A DNA stretch of 60,857 nucleotides, filler included, from an uncultured bacterium (GTDB lineage: Bacteria; Hinthialibacterota; Hinthialibacteria; Hinthialibacterales; Hinthialibacteraceae), in the NCBI GenBank assembly GCA_964449065.1. It is 6 parts of 6 records of this genome, joined end to end, with 100 filler letters (N's around TTAATTAATTAA, not from the genome) between each part and the next. Parts side by side here need not be neighbours in the genome. Positions count along the whole stretch, not along the records: positions 30,823 to 40,878 come from CAYVAZ010000189.1; 5 more parts are not named here. One strand, written 5' to 3'. A program made the translations under genes and the position numbers. The notes beneath the pieces are model-generated. The model worked only from the letters and a program-made list of their open reading frames with translations. It had not been told where the DNA came from and searched no databases. Of the stretch, positions 10,326-60,504 are shown in pieces. The number at the start of each line of letters is the position of its first letter. The stretch's first letter is position 1.

Positions 10326-10398
10326 CAAAGCGAAGCGTAGCCCACCATGACCATCTCTGCTCACTCGATTTTAACCAACAGTCTTATTGCAACTTGGG
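10326..10398. repeat. Right end of a dispersed MITE/REP-like repeat (family B)
   Basis: AAGCGAAGCGTAGCCCACCA..ACCATCTCT.CTCACTCGATTT.AACCAACA....TTGCAACTTGG closely matches 20686-20759. Confidence 0.75.
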
Positions 10399-10471
10399 AT
10401 TATGCGCTGTGTTTATTCCAATGAAAAAGGCTCATACCGTTCCTTTTCAAAACGACCGTAACGAATAGAAA

Positions 10472-20595: not shown

Positions 20596-20759
20596 GGGAG
20601 GGCGAGGCTCCCGCCGAGCCACAGGGTTTTCACCTTACCCGACACTTTTCCCCTGTCAGTGTAGTAGGGTGAAACTGTAGGGCTCCAAGCGAAGCGCAGC
20701 CCACCACAACCATCTCTTCTCACTCGATTTGAACCAACATTCCTGTTGCAACTTGGTAT
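20596..20759. repeat. Family B composite repeat (REP-like hairpins, ending TGCAACTTGGTAT)
   Basis: 25 bp at 20596-20620 identical to 60480-60504; GTAGGGTGAAACTGTAGGG similar to 28511 and 60417; right end matches 10326-10398. Confidence 0.75.
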
Positions 20760-20765
20760 TACTCT

Positions 20766-21041
20766 CTGATGTTACGCAATCCATGATTGACGATTGCTTG
20801 AAAAATGGGTTTTGTAGTGAGCCAACTATTCTTAGTCAAACGCAGTGTCTATCGTCTTCTCCATTTAGGAGAAGATAAGAGATAAGGACGATGAGAGCGA
20901 TTGCTCCCCATGACGCAGTAGCGTCATTAGAAGTTTATTCCTCCCGAACCCTCACCCCGTCCCTCTCCCGGTGGGCAAGGGCGATAGATGCAGCGAAGGA
21001 TGAGAAAAACGGGCATATCATAATGTAGTGCGTAACGTGAG
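20766..21041. mobile_element. 276-bp MITE (family A) with 13-bp TIRs and 7-bp target duplication
   Basis: CTGATGTTACGCA ... TGCGTAACGTGAG, flanked by TTACTCT at 20759-20765 and 21042-21048; homologous to 24930-25203. Confidence 0.85.
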
Positions 21042-28448: not shown

Positions 28449-28550
28449 ATACCAAGCTGCATCTAAAAAGTGAGTGATCTTTCACGCAACCATACGGGAT
28501 CATGAAACGGTAAGGTGAAACGGCAGGGTGGCTTAAAGCGAAGCGTAGCC
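28449..28550. repeat. Family B repeat, left part
   Basis: ATACCAAGCTGCA (12/13 match to the inverse of TGCAACTTGGTAT), then ATCTTTCACGCAACCATA shared with 60378-60461. Confidence 0.7.
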
Positions 28551-30822: not shown

Positions 30823-30877
30823 TTTCTTGGACGGAGAAATTTATTTATTGACAAGGGGCCTTTTAATGGGCGACCCC
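30823..30877 (+). repeat. Diverged third copy of the GACCCC-ending terminal repeat
   Basis: TTTCTTGGACGGAG....TTAT..ATTGAC.AGG.GCCTTTTAATGGGCGACCCC aligns with 31732-31786. Confidence 0.8.
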
Positions 30878-30885
30878 ATATCTGT

Positions 30886-31355
30886 TCATATCTGTTTGTG
30901 TTCGTTTTTGCCCATGATGGTCCTATGACCTGAAAAAGGATAGTGGCCAACTGTTCAATATTTGACACGAGTTCTGCTCTTAAGGGATTCAGGTGGATGT
31001 ATCTTACCAGTTCAAGGAGGTAGGAATCCTCCTGGCAGAGGATGGATTTGTATCGATTCTGAAAAAGGTGACCATGCCTTTTATGTCTTCGGTTATACCG
31101 GATGGCATGACCGGTAAGCAAACGCCTCATCACCGCCGCAATCGGCTCTTGTCCGGTCTTTAGCAAGAGATGAAAATGATTGGGAATCAAAGACCACGCA
31201 TAGCATTGTGTCTTTGTTTGTTCCAGGATCAATCCAAGATTGTCTATGAAATCATAACGATCGTGATCATCATTGAACATCTTTCGGCGCTCGATGCCTC
31301 GTGCAATAATGTGGTGCAGTGCACCTTCCGTATCGATGCGTGATTGTCTTGGCAT
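30886..31355 (-). pseudogene. REP-associated tyrosine transposase (RAYT/TnpA-REP, Y1 HUH), frameshifted near 30948 and 3'-truncated
   Basis: MPRQSRID...HHIIARGIERR, NHFHLL (HUH), GHLFQNRYKS, RYIHLNP (catalytic Tyr); YPFSGH continues in another frame. Confidence 0.9.
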
Positions 31356-31444
31356 GTGAAAGGTGGTATCAACAACAACCTTTATCGTCAAGTTTAAATG
31401 TTAAGGGCGTCCCCTTTTTCCTAGAGGAAAACCTCTTTTTCCCG

Positions 31445-31690
31445 TACTGGCTAGGAAAACCTCTTGTCAGCCATGAAACGATTGTTAATTTGATTGCTGC
31501 AACTACCACCAAAAATGGTTTGAAAGTACGAGCTGAACTTGACTCTTCGCATTATCCGAAGGGGATAAAAGTAACAGATGATGATCTTAAAGCAGTACAA
31601 ATTCAGCGCAACGATTTTCACGGTGAATGGAATTATTCAATTGTCCCGGCTCCCCCATGAGTGGCCGTTTTATTATTTTACAGACCCTTA
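31445..31690 (+). mobile_element. 3' fragment of an ISAzo13-family transposase with probable right end
   Basis: W.GKPLVSHETIVNLIAATTTKNGLKVRAELD...YPKGIKV.D......I....FHGEWNYSI (stop at 31660). Confidence 0.88.
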
Positions 31691-31785
31691 GTAATGATCC
31701 AAGTGTTTTACCTCGCAAGAAAAGTACCTTTTTTCTTGAACGGAGTTCTATTATCTCTTGACGAGGACCTTTTAATGGGTGACCC
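31686..31785 (+). repeat. Left arm of a perfect 100-bp inverted repeat
   Basis: Exact reverse complement of 40636-40735 by base-by-base comparison. Confidence 0.95.
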
Positions 31786-31973
31786 CTTGTGTTTCCGCAT
31801 TTGTTTTTTCGTGGCTGTATTTGCGGCAATCCAGGTAAGCAGATATCCGTTCGCTCTATCAAGAAAAACTATATCGTTGCCAGCTTGGACTGCAATATCA
31901 TCCAGACGCTACACAGCCCCCACCACACCCTGCTTATTCCACGCCTATGTAGGCAGTCGCCTCATCAACTGCG

Positions 31974-33161
31974 TCAGATCAATTCAATTGCCAGTGCAGT
32001 AGCTTCCCCGCCGCCAAGGCACAGGCCAGCAATGCCACGTTTGAGGTCATGTTTTTTTAATGCATAGAGTAGTGTGACGATTATACGAGCCCCGGTCGCG
32101 CCAATAGGGTGTCCCATGGCACATGCTCCTCCGTTGATATTAACCTTGTCGTGTGAGATATTGAGTTCGCGCATGGCGAACATCGTGACAACGGCAAAGG
32201 CTTCATTTATTTCGTACAGATCAACGTCTTGGGTAGACCAGTTAATCTTGGCCATCAGTTTTTGGATGGCGCCGACAGGTGCTGTAGCAAACCAACGGGA
32301 TTCCTGGGCATGGGTGGCATGACCATGAATGCGGGCCAATGGCTTGAGGCCACGTTTCAACGCCTCGGACTCGCGCATAAGTACGAGGGCCGCCGCGCCA
32401 TCGGAGATGGAAGATGAGTTTGCCGCGGTCACGGTACCATCTTTTTTGAAAGCCGGTTTGAGCTTGGGAATCTTAGAGATATTGCAACGTCCGGGGGTTT
32501 CATCATCACTTACCTGCGTCTCCCCCTTACGACTCACTACTTTGACCGGTGCAATTTCATCGCGGAAGTATCCCTTGCTTACTGCACGCTGGGCACGACC
32601 TACCGATTCTGTGGCGAAAGCATCCTGTTCATCACGGGTAAAGCCATAGGTCTCGGCACACAGTTCGGCATAGGCACCCATCAGTTTACCTTCATAGGCA
32701 TCTTCAAGACCGTCATAAAACATGTGGTCGTAGAGTTGGTCGTGGCCAAGGCGGTATCCCTCGCGTGCCTTAGGCAGAATAAAGGGAGCCTTGGTCATGG
32801 ATTCCATACCGCCGGCAATGCCAATTGCAGCCGTGCCGGCAAGGATTTCGTCATGTATGATCATTGTGGTCTTCATTGCCGACCCGCACATCTTGGTAAG
32901 CGTTGAACAGGGCACCGACGTCGGCAACCCGGCGCCAAGCGCGGCCTGCCTGGCTGGCGCTTGCTTGAGGCCTCCCATTAGGCAACAGCCGAAAATCACA
33001 TCGTCAATGTCCTCTCCACGGATACCGGCTTGCTCGACCGCAGCCGAAATGGCACTTGAGCCGAGTTGCGGTGCGGTCACACTGGCGAACTGGCCTTGGA
33101 ACGAACCGACGGGGGTTCGTTTGGCGCCAACAATTACTACTAAATCATTAGGTAACGACAT
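31974..33161 (-). CDS. Acetyl-CoA C-acyltransferase (thiolase)
   Basis: KMCGS, GGMESM, NEAFA, GHPIGATG, CLGGG. Confidence 0.96.
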   Translation of the reverse strand: MSLPNDLVVIVGAKRTPVGSFQGQFASVTAPQLGSSAISAAVEQAGIRGEDIDDVIFGCCLMGGLKQAPARQAALGAGLPTSVPCSTLTKMCGSAMKTTMIIHDEILAGTAAIGIAGGMESMTKAPFILPKAREGYRLGHDQLYDHMFYDGLEDAYEGKLMGAYAELCAETYGFTRDEQDAFATESVGRAQRAVSKGYFRDEIAPVKVVSRKGETQVSDDETPGRCNISKIPKLKPAFKKDGTVTAANSSSISDGAAALVLMRESEALKRGLKPLARIHGHATHAQESRWFATAPVGAIQKLMAKINWSTQDVDLYEINEAFAVVTMFAMRELNISHDKVNINGGACAMGHPIGATGARIIVTLLYALKKHDLKRGIAGLCLGGGEATALAIELI

Positions 33162-33487
33162 AGGTTGTTTTTCCTCGAATTTATAACCGTGCTCAAGGGA
33201 GCCAGCTTATTTTACTGAAATGCGAAGGCCACCCGTCAAGGCGTATCACCTCGCCATTCAGGTATATGCTTTGGATGATGAGTTGACCCATCGCTATGTA
33301 TTCCATCCATCTGTCCATTCGTGGGTGTATCGAAACTGTTTTGTATAACTTTTGTGGAATTTCTTTTACAAAAACCTTCCTATTTCACTCATAAAATGTG
33401 AAGGTAATATTGTGTGTTCCAGAATTATCAGAACTCAGAACAATAAATCCCGTGTTTTCTACTTTATTTGGCTTTCCTTATGTGAAT

Positions 33488-34822
33488 TTAATTGACAACG
33501 AAAGTTGGCAACCAAGTGATTGTTTGAGGAAAAAGAACGAAAATGGTTAAGCCAAATAGCATAAGGAGGACAAAAGGAAATATTCCTTTATAGATATCTA
33601 TGGTTTCAACACCTTTCACCCCAATTCCTCTTAAATAAAATAGTGCATATCCGAATGGAGGTGTCAAAAAAGAGGCTTGGAGATTTACCGCCATTATTAC
33701 TACAAACCAGATTTTGTCAAAGCCAAGTTCGGAAGCAATTGGTAGAAATAGAGGGAAGCAGATGAGAACGATGCCGATCCAATCGATAAACATGCCCAAC
33801 AGGAAGACGATAACCTGCATAACTATAAAAGTACCCCATTTGCCGAGCCCCAGACCTAAAACGAAGTTTGTGACCACCTCTCCGCCTCCATTGCCTAGGA
33901 ACACACCCGTGAAGCAAGTTGCACCCACCAACACAATTAACACCATGGCTGATGTATTGGCCGTTTTTACGATTGTCTGCACGAGAGTTTGCCAGGAAAA
34001 TTTTCCGTAGGCAACCACCATCAGGAAGGCAAGAAATGCCCCTCCTCCAGAAGCCTCGGTCGGGGTGGCAATTCCAGCAAACAAGGTCCCTAAAACCCCC
34101 GCAACCAAGATTACAGGAGGAACCAATGATTTGAGGACCATTAAGATAATCTGTTTCTTTGAAACTTGATCAAGTTCATCCTTGCTAATTGGAGGGCCTA
34201 GTTCAGGATTTTTGAAGCAGCGAATAGCAATATAAGTTGTATATAAACTGGCTAATATAAAGCCTGGAATCATGGCACCGGCAAACAATTTCCCCACGGA
34301 AAGGGATGCCTCACTACCCATAACAACAAGCATAATGCTGGGTGGTATAAGTATACCAAGAGTTCCTCCCGAACAGATGGTACCGCAGGACATCTGCTTG
34401 TCATACCCATACCGAAGCATCATTGGGAGGCCTAAGAGTCCCATCGTAACGACAGATGCTCCAATCACTCCTGTACAAGCTGCAAAAATGGTACATACAA
34501 GAATCACGGTTATTCCGAGACCGCCTCGAATGGGTCCTAACAAGTAGCGCAAGGCTATAAAAAGTTCTTCAGTAACCCCCGATCGATCAAGGAACTGGGC
34601 CATAAAGATAAAGAGAGGAATCGCCAGTAGGACATAATTGTTCATTGTGCCATATATTCTATTGGGGAATAACGCAAATATGTCTGGGCCCCAGCTTCCA
34701 ATCAATCCAAAAATTACACTTAAACCTCCAAGTACGAATGCCAAAGGGTGCCCCGTTAGAAGACCAATGAAAAGGCCGCCGAACATCAAAACAACCAACC
34801 ATTCAGGTGATAATTCTATCAT
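33488..34822 (-). CDS. dctM: TRAP transporter large permease
   Basis: LLAIPLFIFM, GTLGILIPPSI, ATPTEA, LTPPFG. Confidence 0.93.
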   Translation of the reverse strand: MIELSPEWLVVLMFGGLFIGLLTGHPLAFVLGGLSVIFGLIGSWGPDIFALFPNRIYGTMNNYVLLAIPLFIFMAQFLDRSGVTEELFIALRYLLGPIRGGLGITVILVCTIFAACTGVIGASVVTMGLLGLPMMLRYGYDKQMSCGTICSGGTLGILIPPSIMLVVMGSEASLSVGKLFAGAMIPGFILASLYTTYIAIRCFKNPELGPPISKDELDQVSKKQIILMVLKSLVPPVILVAGVLGTLFAGIATPTEASGGGAFLAFLMVVAYGKFSWQTLVQTIVKTANTSAMVLIVLVGATCFTGVFLGNGGGEVVTNFVLGLGLGKWGTFIVMQVIVFLLGMFIDWIGIVLICFPLFLPIASELGFDKIWFVVIMAVNLQASFLTPPFGYALFYLRGIGVKGVETIDIYKGIFPFVLLMLFGLTIFVLFPQTITWLPTFVVN

Positions 34823-34823
34823 G

Positions 34824-35327
34824 TTATTTATCTCCCTTCAGGAAAGCTATTTTTTTTGCAACTTCTGACAGTCCTTGCAAAAACAAAAGGATAAAGGCAA
34901 GAAATATTACTGTTTTTATAGGATACGTGGGGCCGCCATAAACGCTCATACTGGTCTCCTTTATGGCCCATGATTTGGCGGCAAAAAAATATCCCTGCCA
35001 GATACATACCAGCGTAAACGGAAAGAAAAAAACGACGTAGGCGAAAATGTCCACAATCGCTTTATTTTTAGGTGAAAAATGATAGGTGGCTATATCAACA
35101 GACACATGTGAATTGTGAAGCAAGGCATAGCCAGCAATAATCATGAAATACAATCCAAATAGTTGAGTAGTCACCTCAAAACCCCATATAGTTGGGCTAT
35201 TAAAACCCACCCGCATAATGACCTCCAAAACCGCAAGTAAGGTTATAACAGCTATCACCCAGCCAACGACCCTGCCTACCCACTCATTTAGGTTGTCAAT
35301 ATATTTGGAGAATTTCATCATACACAT
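34824..35327 (-). CDS. dctQ: TRAP transporter small permease
   Basis: Four TM helices, EVIMR..FNSPTIW, HVSVDI; lies between dctP and dctM. Confidence 0.9.
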   Translation of the reverse strand: MCMMKFSKYIDNLNEWVGRVVGWVIAVITLLAVLEVIMRVGFNSPTIWGFEVTTQLFGLYFMIIAGYALLHNSHVSVDIATYHFSPKNKAIVDIFAYVVFFFPFTLVCIWQGYFFAAKSWAIKETSMSVYGGPTYPIKTVIFLAFILLFLQGLSEVAKKIAFLKGDK

Positions 35328-35479
35328 CCTGGTTGGAATACTTCATCTGAAGCGCAATAGACACGGACAGGCTTTGACAAAATACCCAAATTTTCAAAAT
35401 CATGAAATATTGTTCTCTCAGGAGGGATATGTCCAGCACACCCCTCCATGAAGATTGCTTTATTTAACGCCTTTCACTA

Positions 35480-36601
35480 TTATTTTATAGCTTCTTTTAT
35501 TGCATTCAAGTCGGGAGGTGTGGCTATATTCCGGCCATGGGAGAATGGATCTGAAATAGAACGCCACTTCCCAAAATCCTGCAAAAACTTATATTGGGAA
35601 TAGGCAATTTTAGCAAATAGTGGATTATTTTCACATGATTCCAAAGTGTGTCTGTTAACTAGTTTCTGTATTTTCTCGATATCTTCATCACCAAGTTTAG
35701 TAATTTCGATCCCTTTGTCCAAAAATGTTTGAACAGCAGCAATATTGTTATATTCAAAGAAAGTATAGGACCAAAGAAAATTGGCCATTGCTGCAGTTTT
35801 CAGCATCTCTTTATGCTCAGGACTAAATTCATCCCATACTTTCTTGTTAATAAGAACACTAAAAATGGCGCCAGTTGCATGCCATGAAGGGGACGCCCAA
35901 TATTTAGTGATCTCCTGAAATCCCATATTCACATCAACACTCGGAATATTGTACTCAGCGGCATCAATTACTCCCTTTTCCAAAGCTTGATAGACTTCCG
36001 AACCTGCAAGATTGACTTGCACGCCGCCTAAATCTTTTAACACTTTTCCTTGTAACTTTCCGCCCATTCTTATCTTCATTCCTTTAATATCTTCAATGGA
36101 ACGGATAGGCTTGTTACCCCGAATTCCAGATTCAGATCCATGCCCACCAAAGGGCAAAGCAACAAGACCGAAATTACCATACGCTTCTTGTATAAGATCA
36201 AATCCTCCTCCTTGATATATCCAGAGCATATAATCATTGATTGATAAACCTAGAGGCTGTGACCCAATGATATTAAATGCCTCATCTTTACCTGGCCAGT
36301 AACCTCCCCAGTCTCCTCCCATATCGAGTGTGCCATTTGCAACTGTGTCAAATAGCTCAAACGCTGGAACCATGGTTCCACCATCGAAAAATTTAATTTG
36401 GAAATTGTCACCACCCATACTATTGACAAGTTTCACGAAGTGGCGGTCAACTTCGATCAATTCAATTCCTGATGACCAGACAGAACTCATCTTTAATCGG
36501 ATTTTTTTATTTTTTTCAGCAGCACTGATTGGAGCTACCTGCCAAATAAGAAAACTTACTAAGATAACTGGTAACATCTTTAAAAAAATAACCTTTTTCA
36601 T
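35480..36601 (-). CDS. dctP: TRAP substrate-binding protein (TakP/monocarboxylate-like)
   Basis: Signal peptide, FDTVANGTLD, DIKGMKIRMGG, EVYQALEKGVIDAAEY. Confidence 0.92.
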   Translation of the reverse strand: MKKVIFLKMLPVILVSFLIWQVAPISAAEKNKKIRLKMSSVWSSGIELIEVDRHFVKLVNSMGGDNFQIKFFDGGTMVPAFELFDTVANGTLDMGGDWGGYWPGKDEAFNIIGSQPLGLSINDYMLWIYQGGGFDLIQEAYGNFGLVALPFGGHGSESGIRGNKPIRSIEDIKGMKIRMGGKLQGKVLKDLGGVQVNLAGSEVYQALEKGVIDAAEYNIPSVDVNMGFQEITKYWASPSWHATGAIFSVLINKKVWDEFSPEHKEMLKTAAMANFLWSYTFFEYNNIAAVQTFLDKGIEITKLGDEDIEKIQKLVNRHTLESCENNPLFAKIAYSQYKFLQDFGKWRSISDPFSHGRNIATPPDLNAIKEAIK

Positions 36602-36842
36602 ATTGAACGTCTCCTTTGCTCAGAAAAATGATAGTTCATTTTGCTTTGATACTACCTCAAATGCAACCGCCAACAATATAATTTTGATAAATTACAGCCT
36701 AATACACTCCTCTTTTCATGTACTCCTCCTTTTAAATATAAAATACCATGCGTGTCGCATTTGTATTTCCCTAAAGACAGGAAAAGAAATACATAGACAG
36801 TTTATATGACACCTCTTTTCTTATTGCTCAATGATTTAAAGA

Positions 36843-37637
36843 TCATCCCCTTGATCCAATCCGCAATCCGCCATGGATAAAATACACATCTCCAGCCAGA
36901 GCTTCATTTCGGTATAATTCTCCGACCAAAGAGGCAAATTCTAAAGGATCAATCAATCGTCCTATGGGCACATCCAATAGAATCTTCTCAAGGGCTTTCT
37001 GGTTCATACCTTTAGCCATTGCAGTATTGCAATAACCAGGTGCAACCGCCACACAGCGGATTCGGTTTGAAAGGCCACGCCGGAAAAATTCTGCAGTAAT
37101 AACTTTTGGCAGAACGGACATCGCTGCCTTAGAAGATGAATAGTTAATCTGGCCTGCTGTTCCCAGTGATCCCGTTGAAGAAACTAAGCATATGAGCCCT
37201 TTGCAACTATTGTTGATCATACGTTCAGAACACTCGCGTATCGTTAGAAAAACGCCGGTTAAATTGATATCAATAACTTTTTGAAAATCCTCAAGAGACA
37301 TTTTTTTTGTGATTTTGCCTGATTCTCGATTAGGAGAAACCATGAGGCGATCTTTGATAATGCCAGCAAAGGGTGCCACAAGATTAATTTTACCGAATTT
37401 TTCAATCGCTACGTCAGCAAGTTTCGAACAATCCAATTCATTTGTTACATCACAAGCTATTGAAAAAGAGTCTCCTTTTGGTGCGCTAATTTTTTTCTCT
37501 GCTTGTTCCAATGCCTCAAGAGCGATATCGGCTAAAACTACTTTACCTCCATTCCTTATCCAGTAATTGGCAACTTCTAAACCAAGACCAGAACCACCGC
37601 CAGTAATAACAGCAACTGAATCTTTTATTTCTAACAT
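36843..37637 (-). CDS. SDR oxidoreductase (3-oxoacyl/3-hydroxyacyl-CoA reductase-like)
   Basis: TGGGSGLG, AGI, YSSSK. Confidence 0.92.
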   Translation of the reverse strand: MLEIKDSVAVITGGGSGLGLEVANYWIRNGGKVVLADIALEALEQAEKKISAPKGDSFSIACDVTNELDCSKLADVAIEKFGKINLVAPFAGIIKDRLMVSPNRESGKITKKMSLEDFQKVIDINLTGVFLTIRECSERMINNSCKGLICLVSSTGSLGTAGQINYSSSKAAMSVLPKVITAEFFRRGLSNRIRCVAVAPGYCNTAMAKGMNQKALEKILLDVPIGRLIDPLEFASLVGELYRNEALAGDVYFIHGGLRIGSRG

Positions 37638-37764
37638 CTTGTTTCCCTATGCAAGTTTTAGGCAAAGGTCATACTCTGCATTTAAGCGGGAGATCACTTT
37701 TTCATAATCCCATCATTAATTTAAGCCTTTAACAGGCATTGCCCGATTCCAATTAGAGTTTTCC

Positions 37765-38913
37765 TTATTCCGACGCTATACGTAAAATTTCATCCTGGTG
37801 TTGCCCGAGAGCAGGTGGAATCCCTGGGTTTCCAGGTGTTTTGGAAAATTTTATTGCAGTTCCTCTTATCTTAAGTTTCGGCACGGTTTTAGAGAAAGGT
37901 ACATCGACTTCCACTATGGTTTTTCTTTCATTCAAATGAGGATCTTCGACAACTTCTTTCACTGTTCTGACCCTTGCGCAGGGAATACTGTTTTTTATCA
38001 GCAGCTTTTCCAATTTGTTTAGGTCTTCAAACGAATTCACCCATTCATCAATGATAGGTATCAGTTCCTTCTGATTTAAATTTCGTTCCGCAACTGATGC
38101 AAATTTAGGATCGTTTGCAAGCTCTGGTCTGCCCATCAAAGAAGTTAAAGTGTTCCATAATTTAGGATTCAACGCTGCAAGCATCATCCCTTCAGATTTT
38201 TGGCCAAAAATTCCATACGGGGTCAAAATATTACTGTGATTACCATTTCTTGTCGTATCATTACCGGTCGAAGCTACTTCAAAACAGTCAATCTGCATGG
38301 TCATACATTCGAGAAGAGAAACATCAATAAATTGCCCCTCTCCTGTACGGCCTCGATGAAACAACGCTGCTGAAATGCCACCAAAAGCGTGATAAGCCGT
38401 AGTATTATCTGCCACGGCTGGCCCTAATCTCATTGGAGGACCATCTGGGAACCCTGTAATATCCATAACCCCGCTCAAGGCTTGGGCAATAAGGTCATAT
38501 CCTGACCTATCTCTATAAGGACCAGTTTGCCCATAAGCTGACACTGAACACATGATAATTGATTTGTTTAATTTGCATAATTCATCATAAGCTAAATTAA
38601 TCTTACTCATTACCCCAGGCCTGAAGCTTTCCACTAAAACATCCGATTTTTTAACCAGCTTTCGAAGAACTGCCATATCAGATTTATCTTTGAAATCTAG
38701 AACAATTGATTTTTTGCCACGGTTGGCTTGGACGAACAAGCTACTTGTTGCTTCACCAATCTGCACAGGCCAAGCTCTGGAATCGTCTCCGACCACAGGC
38801 CTCTCTACTTTAATAACTTCTGCACCAAAATCTGCCAACATTGCCGTCGCTATAGGACCGGCCAGATTGTTTGTCAGGTCGAGGACTCTGATTCCTTCAA
38901 ATATTTGAGCCAT
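37765..38913 (-). CDS. CaiB/BaiF family III CoA-transferase
   Basis: GIRVLDLT..LAGP, LADFGAEVIKVE, NRGKKSI, GYD..AQA.SG, PPALGQH. Confidence 0.94.
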   Translation of the reverse strand: MAQIFEGIRVLDLTNNLAGPIATAMLADFGAEVIKVERPVVGDDSRAWPVQIGEATSSLFVQANRGKKSIVLDFKDKSDMAVLRKLVKKSDVLVESFRPGVMSKINLAYDELCKLNKSIIMCSVSAYGQTGPYRDRSGYDLIAQALSGVMDITGFPDGPPMRLGPAVADNTTAYHAFGGISAALFHRGRTGEGQFIDVSLLECMTMQIDCFEVASTGNDTTRNGNHSNILTPYGIFGQKSEGMMLAALNPKLWNTLTSLMGRPELANDPKFASVAERNLNQKELIPIIDEWVNSFEDLNKLEKLLIKNSIPCARVRTVKEVVEDPHLNERKTIVEVDVPFSKTVPKLKIRGTAIKFSKTPGNPGIPPALGQHQDEILRIASE

Positions 38914-38962
38914 TGAATATATTTCTCCGTTTGTTGAATTTTAATACAATTTCTCCATGTGC

Positions 38963-38978
38963 AGCAATAACCGTGCCA
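38963..38978 (-). promoter_or_regulatory. Sigma54 -24/-12 promoter of the CoA-transferase operon
   Basis: Minus strand TGGCAC-GGTTA-TTGCT, matching consensus, ~50 nt upstream of the ATG; a divergent enhancer-binding protein gene is adjacent. Confidence 0.88.
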
Positions 38979-39222
38979 TACGCTCATCAGGTGTTAACCT
39001 GTTATACTTCAAACTGCTTTGACACTACTCAAATTTCTAAAAAATCCCGTCACCAAAATCATTTAAACATTACAATAGAGGGAAGGTGAATTAAGAACCA
39101 TAAAATTGAATTTGTTGAGTAAACAACATTTCAGGATGTGGGGCAGTGTGTCACTTTGTGTTGCATTCGCTTGTTTCGCACGCTACACTATGACACAAAA
39201 CAACACAAATAGAGAGGCAAGT

Positions 39223-40605
39223 ATGGCTAATGATAGATCCGATGAAATCACATTTAATAATCTCAAGGATATTTTCGATTGTCTCACTGATGCTGTAATC
39301 GTATTGGATAAAAATGCCAAATTAGTCATGGTGAATCCAATCTTTTGCAAGTTGATAGGGACAACTATTGGAAAATGTATTGGTAGAGAGACAAAAGACC
39401 TCATCTCAGAAGGTTTATACGATCGAAGCGTTGTTTACGAGACAATCGAGACAGGCAAAGAGGTGACTGGAATTGTCAATACTGGCGGCGGAGTGGAGCT
39501 TCTCTCTCGCTCCCGAATAGTCTACGACAACGAAGGTAAAATAAAATTCGTAGTAGTGACATCAACACCTGTATCAGTTTTAAAAAGTCTACAAATAGAG
39601 TTTAAAAGGCAGCAGAATTTACCCGACGAGTATTTAACAGATTTGAAGTGCCTGCGAAACCATCTCCAATTTGATGACGATTTCATCTTTGAAAGCCGAG
39701 AAATGAAAAACCTTCTAAATGTAGTCAAGAGAGTAGCCCCACTCGATTTTACCGTACTAATCACCGGAGAATCCGGAGTGGGAAAGGAAATCTTGGCAAA
39801 GACGATTCATAAAAACAGCAATAGAGGAAACACTTTTGTTCCTGTCAACATCCCGGCAATTTCCGACAACCTTTTTGAAGCGGAACTATTTGGATACAAA
39901 GAAGGTGCTTTTACAGGAGCCCTGCGAGGGGGAAAAATAGGTCTTTTTGAGGTTGCACAGGGAGGAACTCTTTTCCTTGATGAGGTTGGGGATATTCCCT
40001 ATCCAATGCAGGTAAAAATTCTTAGATCCATTGAAAATGGTGAAATTACTCGGGTAGGGTCTACTGAAATTACAAAACTTGACTTTAGAATCATTGCAGC
40101 TACAAACAGAGATCTTAGAAAAATGGTAAAGGAAGGAAGCTTTCGAGAAGATTTATTTTATAGATTAAATGTTGTTCCAATAGATATTAAACCTCTCCGG
40201 GAAAGGCATGAAGATATAGAGCCTCTTTGCAACTATTTCATGCAAAACATTAATGATAAGAACAAATTAAACAAATATCTTTTAGCTAATTCACTAGATG
40301 AATTAAAGAAATACAGTTGGCCTGGGAATATACGGGAACTCAGAAATATTTTAGAAAGGCTGGTAACCCAATCTGATGAAAATTATATAACCCAAAAAGA
40401 GGTAAAATCAGTCCTCTGCTTTTCAATTGATGACAACTCGGCGCTTCAAGATGACGGCGTAACTATGTCAGCACTGGAAGAATATGAAGCTTTTGAACAT
40501 TCAAAAATTTTGACAGCCCTCAAGCGAACTGGTGGCAACAAATCAAAAGCGGCAAAGCTACTTGGGACGAGTAGAAGCACATTGTACAGGAAATTAAAAA
40601 GGTAG
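39223..40605 (+). CDS. PAS-domain sigma54-dependent transcriptional activator (Fis HTH)
   Basis: GESGVGKE, GAFTGA, LFLDE, FREDLFYRLNV, WPGNIREL, NKSKAAKLLG.SRSTLYRK. Confidence 0.95.
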   Translation: MANDRSDEITFNNLKDIFDCLTDAVIVLDKNAKLVMVNPIFCKLIGTTIGKCIGRETKDLISEGLYDRSVVYETIETGKEVTGIVNTGGGVELLSRSRIVYDNEGKIKFVVVTSTPVSVLKSLQIEFKRQQNLPDEYLTDLKCLRNHLQFDDDFIFESREMKNLLNVVKRVAPLDFTVLITGESGVGKEILAKTIHKNSNRGNTFVPVNIPAISDNLFEAELFGYKEGAFTGALRGGKIGLFEVAQGGTLFLDEVGDIPYPMQVKILRSIENGEITRVGSTEITKLDFRIIAATNRDLRKMVKEGSFREDLFYRLNVVPIDIKPLRERHEDIEPLCNYFMQNINDKNKLNKYLLANSLDELKKYSWPGNIRELRNILERLVTQSDENYITQKEVKSVLCFSIDDNSALQDDGVTMSALEEYEAFEHSKILTALKRTGGNKSKAAKLLGTSRSTLYRKLKR

Positions 40606-40635
40606 GAACAAACAGAACAAACAGAAGAACAAACA
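40606..40635 (+). repeat. Three GAACAAACA copies abutting the inverted repeat
   Basis: 40606-14, 40615-23, 40627-35. Confidence 0.85.
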
Positions 40636-40735
40636 GGGTCACCCATTAAAAGGTCCTCGTCAAGAGATAATAGAACTCCGTTCAAGAAAAAAGGTACTTT
40701 TCTTGCGAGGTAAAACACTTGGATCATTACTAAGG
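40636..40735 (-). repeat. Right arm of the perfect 100-bp inverted repeat
   Basis: Reverse complement of 31686-31785. Confidence 0.95.
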
Positions 40736-40756
40736 TTACCAGTGACTCCGATTTGC

Positions 40757-40851
40757 GGTACGGTGCGGTACTTGGTACGGGGTCGGGCCACGCTAAATCT
40801 CTTGGTACGGCTTGGTACGGGGTGGTACGGGGTCGGGCCACGCTAAATCTC
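40757..40851 (+). repeat. Stuttered repeat: six GGTAC units and a 29-bp duplication containing GGGGTC
   Basis: TGGTACGGGGTCGGGCCACGCTAAATCTC at 40773-40801 and 40823-40851. Confidence 0.85.
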
Positions 40852-40878
40852 AGTATTTACGAAATTATCCCCCGCAGA

Positions 40879-60188: not shown

Positions 60189-60504
60189 CATACGAATTGC
60201 AAATAGGAACACCGGGTAAAAAAACTCAAACCATGTGCAGGCAAGATGCCTACACTACAACGATTCTTAGGCTGGTTGTAGTGCAGTCGTCCCGCCTGAG
60301 AATGCCGTTTTCTCAGAAATCCAAATTGCAATTGGTATTAAGTATTCAATATGCAGCAATCTCAACTTACATAGGTATGAGTTATCTTTCACGCAACCAT
60401 ATGGGATAATGGAACTGTAGGGTAAAACTGTAGGGTGGCTCATAGCGAATCGAAGCACACCATTCGCGCAAGCAACCCTGGGAGGGCGAGGCTCCCGCCG
60501 AGCC
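60189..60504. repeat. Cluster of MITE/REP-like repeats (family C element ~60189-60340; family B 60378-60504)
   Basis: CCAAATTGCAATTGGTATTA (60321-40) is the exact inverse of 44291-44310; internal CACTACAA/TTGTAGTG hairpin; family B motifs follow. Confidence 0.65.

Follow-up and report, generated by a model that had tools for sequence, protein, structure and literature searches.

We analysed a stretch of 60,857 nucleotides from an uncultured bacterium of the Hinthialibacteraceae (GCA_964449065.1), hereafter the window, in which six contigs are joined by N-spacers. On contig C189 (CAYVAZ010000189.1; window 30823 to 40878, 10,056 bp), which belongs to a 515-contig, 5.2-Mb assembly (G000), a gene cassette is bounded by two inverted 100-bp arms (31686 to 31785 and 40636 to 40735) and adjoined by a RAYT gene (for a tyrosine transposase associated with REPs, palindromes that are repetitive and extragenic). 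A preliminary description had taken the arms for the cis ends of a RAYT-type system that captures or moves whole operons. We find that the arms are almost certainly stubs of the right end of an insertion sequence (IS) of the IS110 family, IS1111 group. About 92 of the 100 arm bases correspond to such a right end, and the inner 6 to 7 bases alone correspond to the tip of a terminal inverted repeat (TIR) of a TIRtron, in which a pair of TIRs encloses a RAYT-like TIRYT gene.

The arms are, as had been described, exact reverse complements over 100 bp on one contig; with extension, the pair matches over 108 nt at 97%. Among the 515 contigs the arm sequence is confined to C189, and no further copy was found there except a diverged one at the contig start. 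This third copy shares 80% identity with the arms over 56 bp and adjoins the truncated RAYT gene, as previously noted, and it is itself cut off by the contig start. X1 and X2 are runs from two samples of one study, one of which may be the source of the assembly; in X1 the third copy is continued by two other records, with a different inner flank (X1, X2). The inner flanks of the two arms are unlike each other. The ends on C189 are arranged as follows.

30823 to 30870, plus strand: right end of a related IS1111-group element (the third copy), cut by the contig start (nhmmer E 4.5e-11).
30871 to 30877, minus strand: TIR tip with CG core, GGGGTCG type; core and tip as in locus L258, same TIR type at 40779 and 40829.
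31446 to 31687, plus strand: 3' remnant of an ISAzo13-family transposase with the right end, setting the outer edge of the left arm (PF07592; relatives L010, C11).
31688 to 31779, plus strand: left arm, IS1111-group right-end stub with -35 box, sub-terminal inverted repeat (IR) and 3-nt extension (nhmmer E 1.4e-15, alignment).
31780 to 31786, minus strand: TG core and TIR tip (GGGGTCA), G-run toward the cassette.
40636 to 40641, plus strand: TIR tip and core, G-run toward the cassette.
40642 to 40765, minus strand: right arm, right-end stub of the IS1111 group that exceeds the left copy in length (nhmmer E 1.1e-15; aligns to L102).
40779 to 40878, plus strand: tandem pair of TIR-like ends (GGGGTCGG type) and tracts, cut off by the end of the contig (repeat family D12; other upstream flanks in X1 and X2).

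An 18-nt motif of the arm matched at least 122 metagenome stretches, giving at least 123 ends; the counts of ends given below rest on the matches listed. At these ends the inner side is constant and the outer flanks are varied. The gene inside the conserved end encodes a protein of ~339 residues. Of the listed ends, 42 have 700 nt or more of sequence on the inside; an IS110 transposase is reached in 9 of them, and the other 33 are stubs. In the metagenomes, 430 to 620 nt of non-coding sequence lie between the end and this gene. The transposases behind this end carry DEDD (RuvC-like) and Transposase_20 domains in all four relatives tested. That of L156 is ~48% identical over its full length to plasmid proteins annotated as ISGsu4 family, which is too distant for the same element. 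A right-end nhmmer profile built without window DNA recovers all three window copies (E 1e-15, 1e-15 and 5e-11). We gathered 39 right ends, including sister elements from genomes of the phylum and order of G041, and these share an anatomy of sub-terminal IR, 3 nt, 2-nt core and target; the right-side sub-terminal IR and 3-nt extension are present in all three window copies. Left ends were located in 19 of the 39 elements and read target, TG, 7 nt and IR, with 2 to 4 mismatches in the 12 IR positions; our script imposed the 7-nt spacing, but neither the TG nor the consensus extension. The non-coding region downstream of the transposase measures 372 to 734 nt, and joining of the element ends would yield TTGACA-17 nt-GATAAT, a predicted junction promoter. 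In G510, four copies share printed ends and profile score.

A TIRYT gene is present anywhere in the locus for 8 of the 123 listed ends and directly inside for 2, so the claim that the arms are RAYT cis ends does not hold, and a reading of the arms as right TIRs of TIRtrons was rejected on the same count. We also rejected a 100-bp MITE (a miniature transposable element with inverted repeats), since each arm has a single end and its outer edge is a junction with another element. The preliminary description had named the ends of a known DDE IS or MITE as the finding that would speak against it, and what we observe comes near to that: the arms are IS ends, of a DEDD rather than a DDE element, and not a MITE. 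No match to the arm was found in plasmids, and viral contigs contained no relative of the IS1111-group element and no right-edge TIR. Other DNA stretches compared with the window yielded no look-alike of it. No relative of the IS110 transposase was found at 1e-60 in the five genomes of the named loci.

Judging from its junctions, 100 bp is not a unit length of the arm. A C-terminus of an ISAzo13 transposase (PF07592, E 6e-19) lies between the RAYT gene and the left arm. The outer edge of the left arm is the ISAzo13 junction, because the ISAzo13 relatives L010 and C11 stop before TTAG like the window copy. The right copy runs ~25 bases past the shared edge and aligns to the full element L102 over ~130 nt; its extension alone outscores 97% of shuffles. 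Beyond it come a tract and then two TIR-like ends, and a comparable pattern of stub, tract and end is found in L215. Going away from the cassette, the ends on either side are nested, every one truncating the preceding element. The ISAzo13 remnant had gone unremarked in the preliminary description.

In the relatives, the bases flanking the elements are GGGGTCA-type repeats, the same as the TIRs around the TIRYT genes of L222, L223, L224, L227 and L232. The IS left end lies 49 to 60 nt ahead of the TIRYT start in 3 of 14 full copies, and L116 contains a TIRYT gene whose right TIR keeps a short IS stub. Two 5-nt segments, located in a hairpin loop directly after the transposase stop, match the element's own target, the top-strand match coming first. 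The first guide loop fits its own target at 85 of 95 left-hand positions (shuffle mean 41.7; 19 elements) and at 166 of 180 right-hand positions (shuffle mean 118.2; 36 elements), and none of 20,000 shuffles reaches either score. With unique guide-target pairs the matches are 70/80 on the left (33.5 shuffled) and 73/85 on the right (43.5 shuffled). From this set L260 was removed as a duplicate, together with rows lacking flank or guide. In a separate sister clade with other targets, the guides have changed to match. L258 has the CG core and tip of the third window copy, and its guide reads TGGCC, which fits the end type at 40779 and 40829. The guide region is missing from the stubs of the window; covariation is seen in the relatives. 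The sister clade, L249 to L257, is retargeted to TG-CCANN sites, and its donor-type region shifts with the two post-core bases (AC to CC), with L161 as an exception.

A second tandem target-type loop precedes the donor-type region within the first 250 nt after the transposase stop in L092, L102, L140, L154, L156, L234, L241 and others. It is clear by eye in 26 rows of the 39-element alignment, and L234 and L241 have a third such loop. A regular expression finds the second loop in 36 of 39 elements, a figure that includes false hits of a loose pattern, with 60 of 90 positions matching against 38.1 when shuffled. In L102, L238 and L242 the actual target is matched more closely by this loop than by the first, and the consensus fold of five elements has two separate stems for the tandem loops. 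No description of a second target-type loop was found in the literature searched, including excerpts of the review PMC13604230, figures and supplements of the 2024 papers aside.

The RAYT gene beside the left arm is a broken TIRYT gene with its own TIR, set among short tandem tracts.

30878 to 30897: short tandem junction tract (RAYT homology ends at ~30898; duplication test).
30898 to 31355, minus strand: pseudogene of TIRYT (Y1 HUH, RAYT-like) with a 1-nt frameshift, retaining the first ~150 of ~333 codons (PF01797, E 2e-11).
31390 to 31414, minus strand: left TIR of the TIRtron itself, GGGGAC type (identical TIR on both sides of the L011 gene).
31415 to 31445: junction tract duplicating ISAzo13 sequence (sequence, duplication test).
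40606 to 40635: junction tract with three 9-nt copies.

The pseudogene retains the Y1_Tnp domain and the left TIR; its frameshift lies near 30945 and its homology ends near codon 150. It is 91% identical to a 333-residue gene of L011, both of whose TIRs equal window 31390 to 31413. We surveyed the best 80 relatives in genomes, including 58 full-length genes of 325 to 345 residues. The left TIR is present in 53 of these 58; in 43 of the 53 the partner TIR adjoins the stop codon with its G-run outermost, and the TIR pair tightly encloses the ~1-kb gene. The C-terminus, where subclass 2.1 would carry a helix-turn-helix, is lost in the window; Bac_DnaA_C scores above the cut-off in L116 and below it in L073, and is not reported for L011. 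No second TIRYT was found in G000. The arm-like motif that had been noticed in the 5' flank of the RAYT gene is indeed present, but it is the TIRYT gene's own 25-bp TIR and differs from the arms. The proposed link to RAYT survives in part: the RAYT gene falls in a TIR-flanked class (TIRYT, equated with subclass 2.1), and the arm tips are TIR tips of that class, but the 100-bp identity is that of an IS end. Short tandem tracts occur just outside 29 of 107 TIRtron ends versus 7 of 107 controls, and at 5 of the 6 ends in the window; they are a possible footprint of TIRYT activity. A tract is also present at 40757 to 40828, and examples in relatives flank the TIRs of L021, L070, L078 and L088.

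We consider it probable that the arms are identical IS1111-group right-end stubs left by two insertions, in opposite orientations, into TIRtron ends and later pruned, although the route through two independent insertions is a weaker step than the identity of the arms. Two TIRtron end repeats would already have had their G-rich tips toward the gene cluster. The DEDD recombinase would use an RNA from the long right end that pairs with both strands of GGGGTCA-type TIRs, and a circular intermediate would insert at these TIRs. The same IS would have entered both TIR tips in opposite orientations by RNA-guided recombination. ISAzo13 may then have landed 98 bp into the left copy, and incoming TIRtron ends may have stripped the sequence beyond on each side, with short tandem tracts as the residue. 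In this TIRtron hot spot the cassette would be passive flanking DNA. Most ends of this kind are stubs (33 of 42 listed), which speaks for the scenario, as does the like pair of ends in L104 (below). Several observations weigh against this scenario. No transposase or guide region of an IS1111-group element was found in the window or in G000, so RNA guidance is documented in the relatives only. TIRYT is not adjacent in 11 of the 14 full copies and some sites deviate (ACACC, ACATA), which points to targeting of the motif and not solely of intact TIRtrons. The shuffles ignore relatedness, which inflates the guide-target score. Tracts are barely enriched at IS-plugged ends (21 versus 14 of 107). 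Stubs of 100 to 160 nt are uncommon (7 of 88), and pruning to 98 and to ~125 nt is a coincidence better explained by a copied end.

A copied end is the main rival, though we hold it rather unlikely: one IS-plugged TIR end (tip and ~125-nt stub) would have been duplicated onto both sides by TIRYT-type processing after a single IS insertion. The similar depth of both cuts fits this, and so does the likeness of the plugged end to a GGGGAC-type TIR, which the preliminary description had noticed. Plugged ends are tandemly duplicated with flank, as TIRtron ends are, in L234, L244, L246, L096, L171 and L203; plugged tips form a 52-bp two-ended palindrome in L201 (L201:301-352), and L012 has two copies of a ~100-bp mini-TIRtron at a distance of 560 bp. 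However, the inner flanks of the arms differ, and no inverted copying over kilobases was seen except in L104, where an identical inward-facing pair of IS-plugged ends surrounds 1.2 kb (L104:1-1385) and two full IS copies fit equally. The interior of L104 holds two small open reading frames, toxin/immunity-like by eye, the second without a Pfam hit. An assembly artefact, with one repeat collapsed or mis-joined, is hardly credible. Depth is low (~6 and 4), and none of the X1 and X2 records listed bridges the right arm. Against this, one X2 record (30964 to 32038, zero differences) spans the left arm with both flanks, so on the left the collapsed repeat that the preliminary description had considered is not what is found; X1 records end 30 nt within the left arm from both sides, as expected of a real two-copy repeat, and the right copy continues as IS sequence.

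That a RAYT-type enzyme used the arms as cis ends to capture the 8.85-kb operon, or uses them to move it, is very unlikely. TIR tips do adjoin the operon on either side, on the right at 30 nt past the activator stop, and the contig is compositionally foreign with a cassette that goes beyond short bits in none of 40 relatives. But the G-runs of the tips at both arms face the cassette, whereas the G-runs of TIRtrons are outermost around the unit (43 of 53 pairs hug the gene in this way); with the geometry reversed, the cassette lies outside the ends, likely as flank and not as cargo. The arm is moreover mostly IS DNA, the local TIRYT is broken and carries a different TIR, the cassette looks mosaic, and the five cassette proteins tested are singletons on one contig. 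No empty site, circle or second cassette copy was found in the assembly, the relatives or the X1 and X2 contigs searched, and at the arms these contigs (assembled, not reads) show neither joints nor a circle or an inversion. As a whole, the preliminary interpretation mostly fails. The inference of a recent event from arm identity dates the IS copies, but not a capture of the operon. TIR-delimited multi-gene units do exist: in L073 (L073:1-8700), several TIRYT genes are accompanied by toxin-antitoxin modules (PemK, HigB/A, ParE and PIN) that lie between same-direction TIRs spaced ~700 bp from one another. This locus is an integron-like array, and TIR ends may stack small modules, but its geometry and its ~0.7-kb units differ from what had been proposed for C189. 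A broader model is unlikely too: TIRtrons would be HUH-driven gene-stacking platforms, integron-like in effect and preyed on by an IS1111 clade whose two or three target loops cover TIR variants; the right end would rebuild a TIR-like tip, plugged ends would stay usable by TIRYT, and such ends would have brought in or bounded the operon.

The cassette between the arms comprises the following features.

31974 to 33161, minus strand: thiolase, GC 0.54 (Pfam).
33207 to 33291, minus strand: probable frameshifted 3' remnant of a second short-chain dehydrogenase/reductase (SDR) gene (translation).
33488 to 36601, minus strand: tripartite ATP-independent periplasmic (TRAP) transporter dctM, dctQ and dctP (Pfam).
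36843 to 38913, minus strand: SDR and CoA-transferase III (Pfam).
38964 to 38978, minus strand: sigma54 -24/-12 promoter motif (regular-expression match).
39106 to 40605, plus strand: PAS/sigma54 activator, its stop abutting the junction tract (Pfam).

Pfam confirms the seven genes that had been described as a self-contained unit (thiolase, DctM/Q/P, SDR, CoA-transferase III and sigma54 activator), with no transposase among them, and the -24/-12 motif agrees with the sigma54 promoter reported earlier. The G000 bin possesses sigma54. The cassette is probably a mosaic, because the GC content of the thiolase gene is 0.54 versus 0.39 to 0.44 for the remaining genes. The remnant upstream of this high-GC thiolase gene is tentatively assigned to the SDR family from a motif. 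C189 is a composition outlier in its bin (tetranucleotide frequency rank 9 of 237 contigs; GC 0.42 versus 0.47), and it looks foreign to the bin or mis-binned. Only short conserved bits of the cassette were found in 40 relatives, and the five proteins tested occur on this contig only. Against 301 genomes of the order of G041, the best match to DctP was 54% and no donor was found. The cassette is ordinary, and its mobility is not supported. Near contig ends elsewhere in the window, GTAG-type repeats with shared flanks (10328 to 10409, 20596 to 20768, 28471 to 28549 and 60378 to 60504; families D3, D4, D11 and D14) are apparently the bin's own REP-like elements.

The RNA-guided IS1111 mechanism has been known since 2024. 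IS1111-group elements with a seekRNA or bridge RNA target the repeats of other elements, such as IS4321/IS5075 (Tn21 TIRs), ISPa11 (REP) and ISKpn4/ISPst6 (attC), according to excerpts of PMC11187229 and PMC11208160. TIRtron TIRs were not found as an IS1111 target class in the published literature searched. TIRtrons and TIRYT were described by Di Nocera 2013 (PMC3733652), and TIRYT was equated with RAYT subclass 2.1 by Quentin 2018 (PMC6006769). In line with the excerpts of both, the window has a RAYT gene with a 25-bp TIR, a G-rich TIR start, and solo and clustered TIRs. The TIRtrons described there enclose the gene only, and the excerpts mention no IS-plugged tips, no junction tracts and no cassette-like arrays. 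A similar gene association was reported in picocyanobacteria, without causal support in the part consulted (10.1101/2020.03.09.984088). Stubs, tracts and arrays provide TIRYT with concrete substrates; no activity of this common HUH class is reported in excerpts of PMC3733652 and PMC6006769. The value of these arms lies in the widespread IS1111 clade behind them, which is aimed at TIRtron repeats and extends the target classes REP, attC and Tn21 TIRs by one. For a compact programmable recombinase, the clade is a natural source of matched guides and targets and, should the second loop prove functional, a single RNA would address two targets.

Composite transposons of the Tn5/Tn10 type carry two inverted copies of one IS around a gene block, and the window likewise has two inverted copies of one IS flanking a gene block. 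Unlike in these composites, both IS left ends are lost, and from an inverted IS110 pair one would expect inversion of the block, not its excision (by the orientation rule, in an excerpt of PMC11208160). The element behind the arms has the IS1111 hallmarks of sub-terminal IRs with a target/extension layout, as excerpted from PMC11187229 and PMC11208160. Its relatives resemble the seekRNA elements of these excerpts in their DEDD and Transposase_20 protein of ~339 residues, sub-terminal IRs, 7- and 3-nt extensions, long non-coding region downstream, order of the matches (top-strand 5' of bottom-strand), predicted junction promoter and target within another element's repeat. The window, unlike the known elements, keeps stubs only. 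The relatives differ from the IS1111 elements in those excerpts in that they target TIRtron TIRs at the GGGGTC(A/G) tip and that they place two, in some cases three, tandem target-type loops before the donor-type region.

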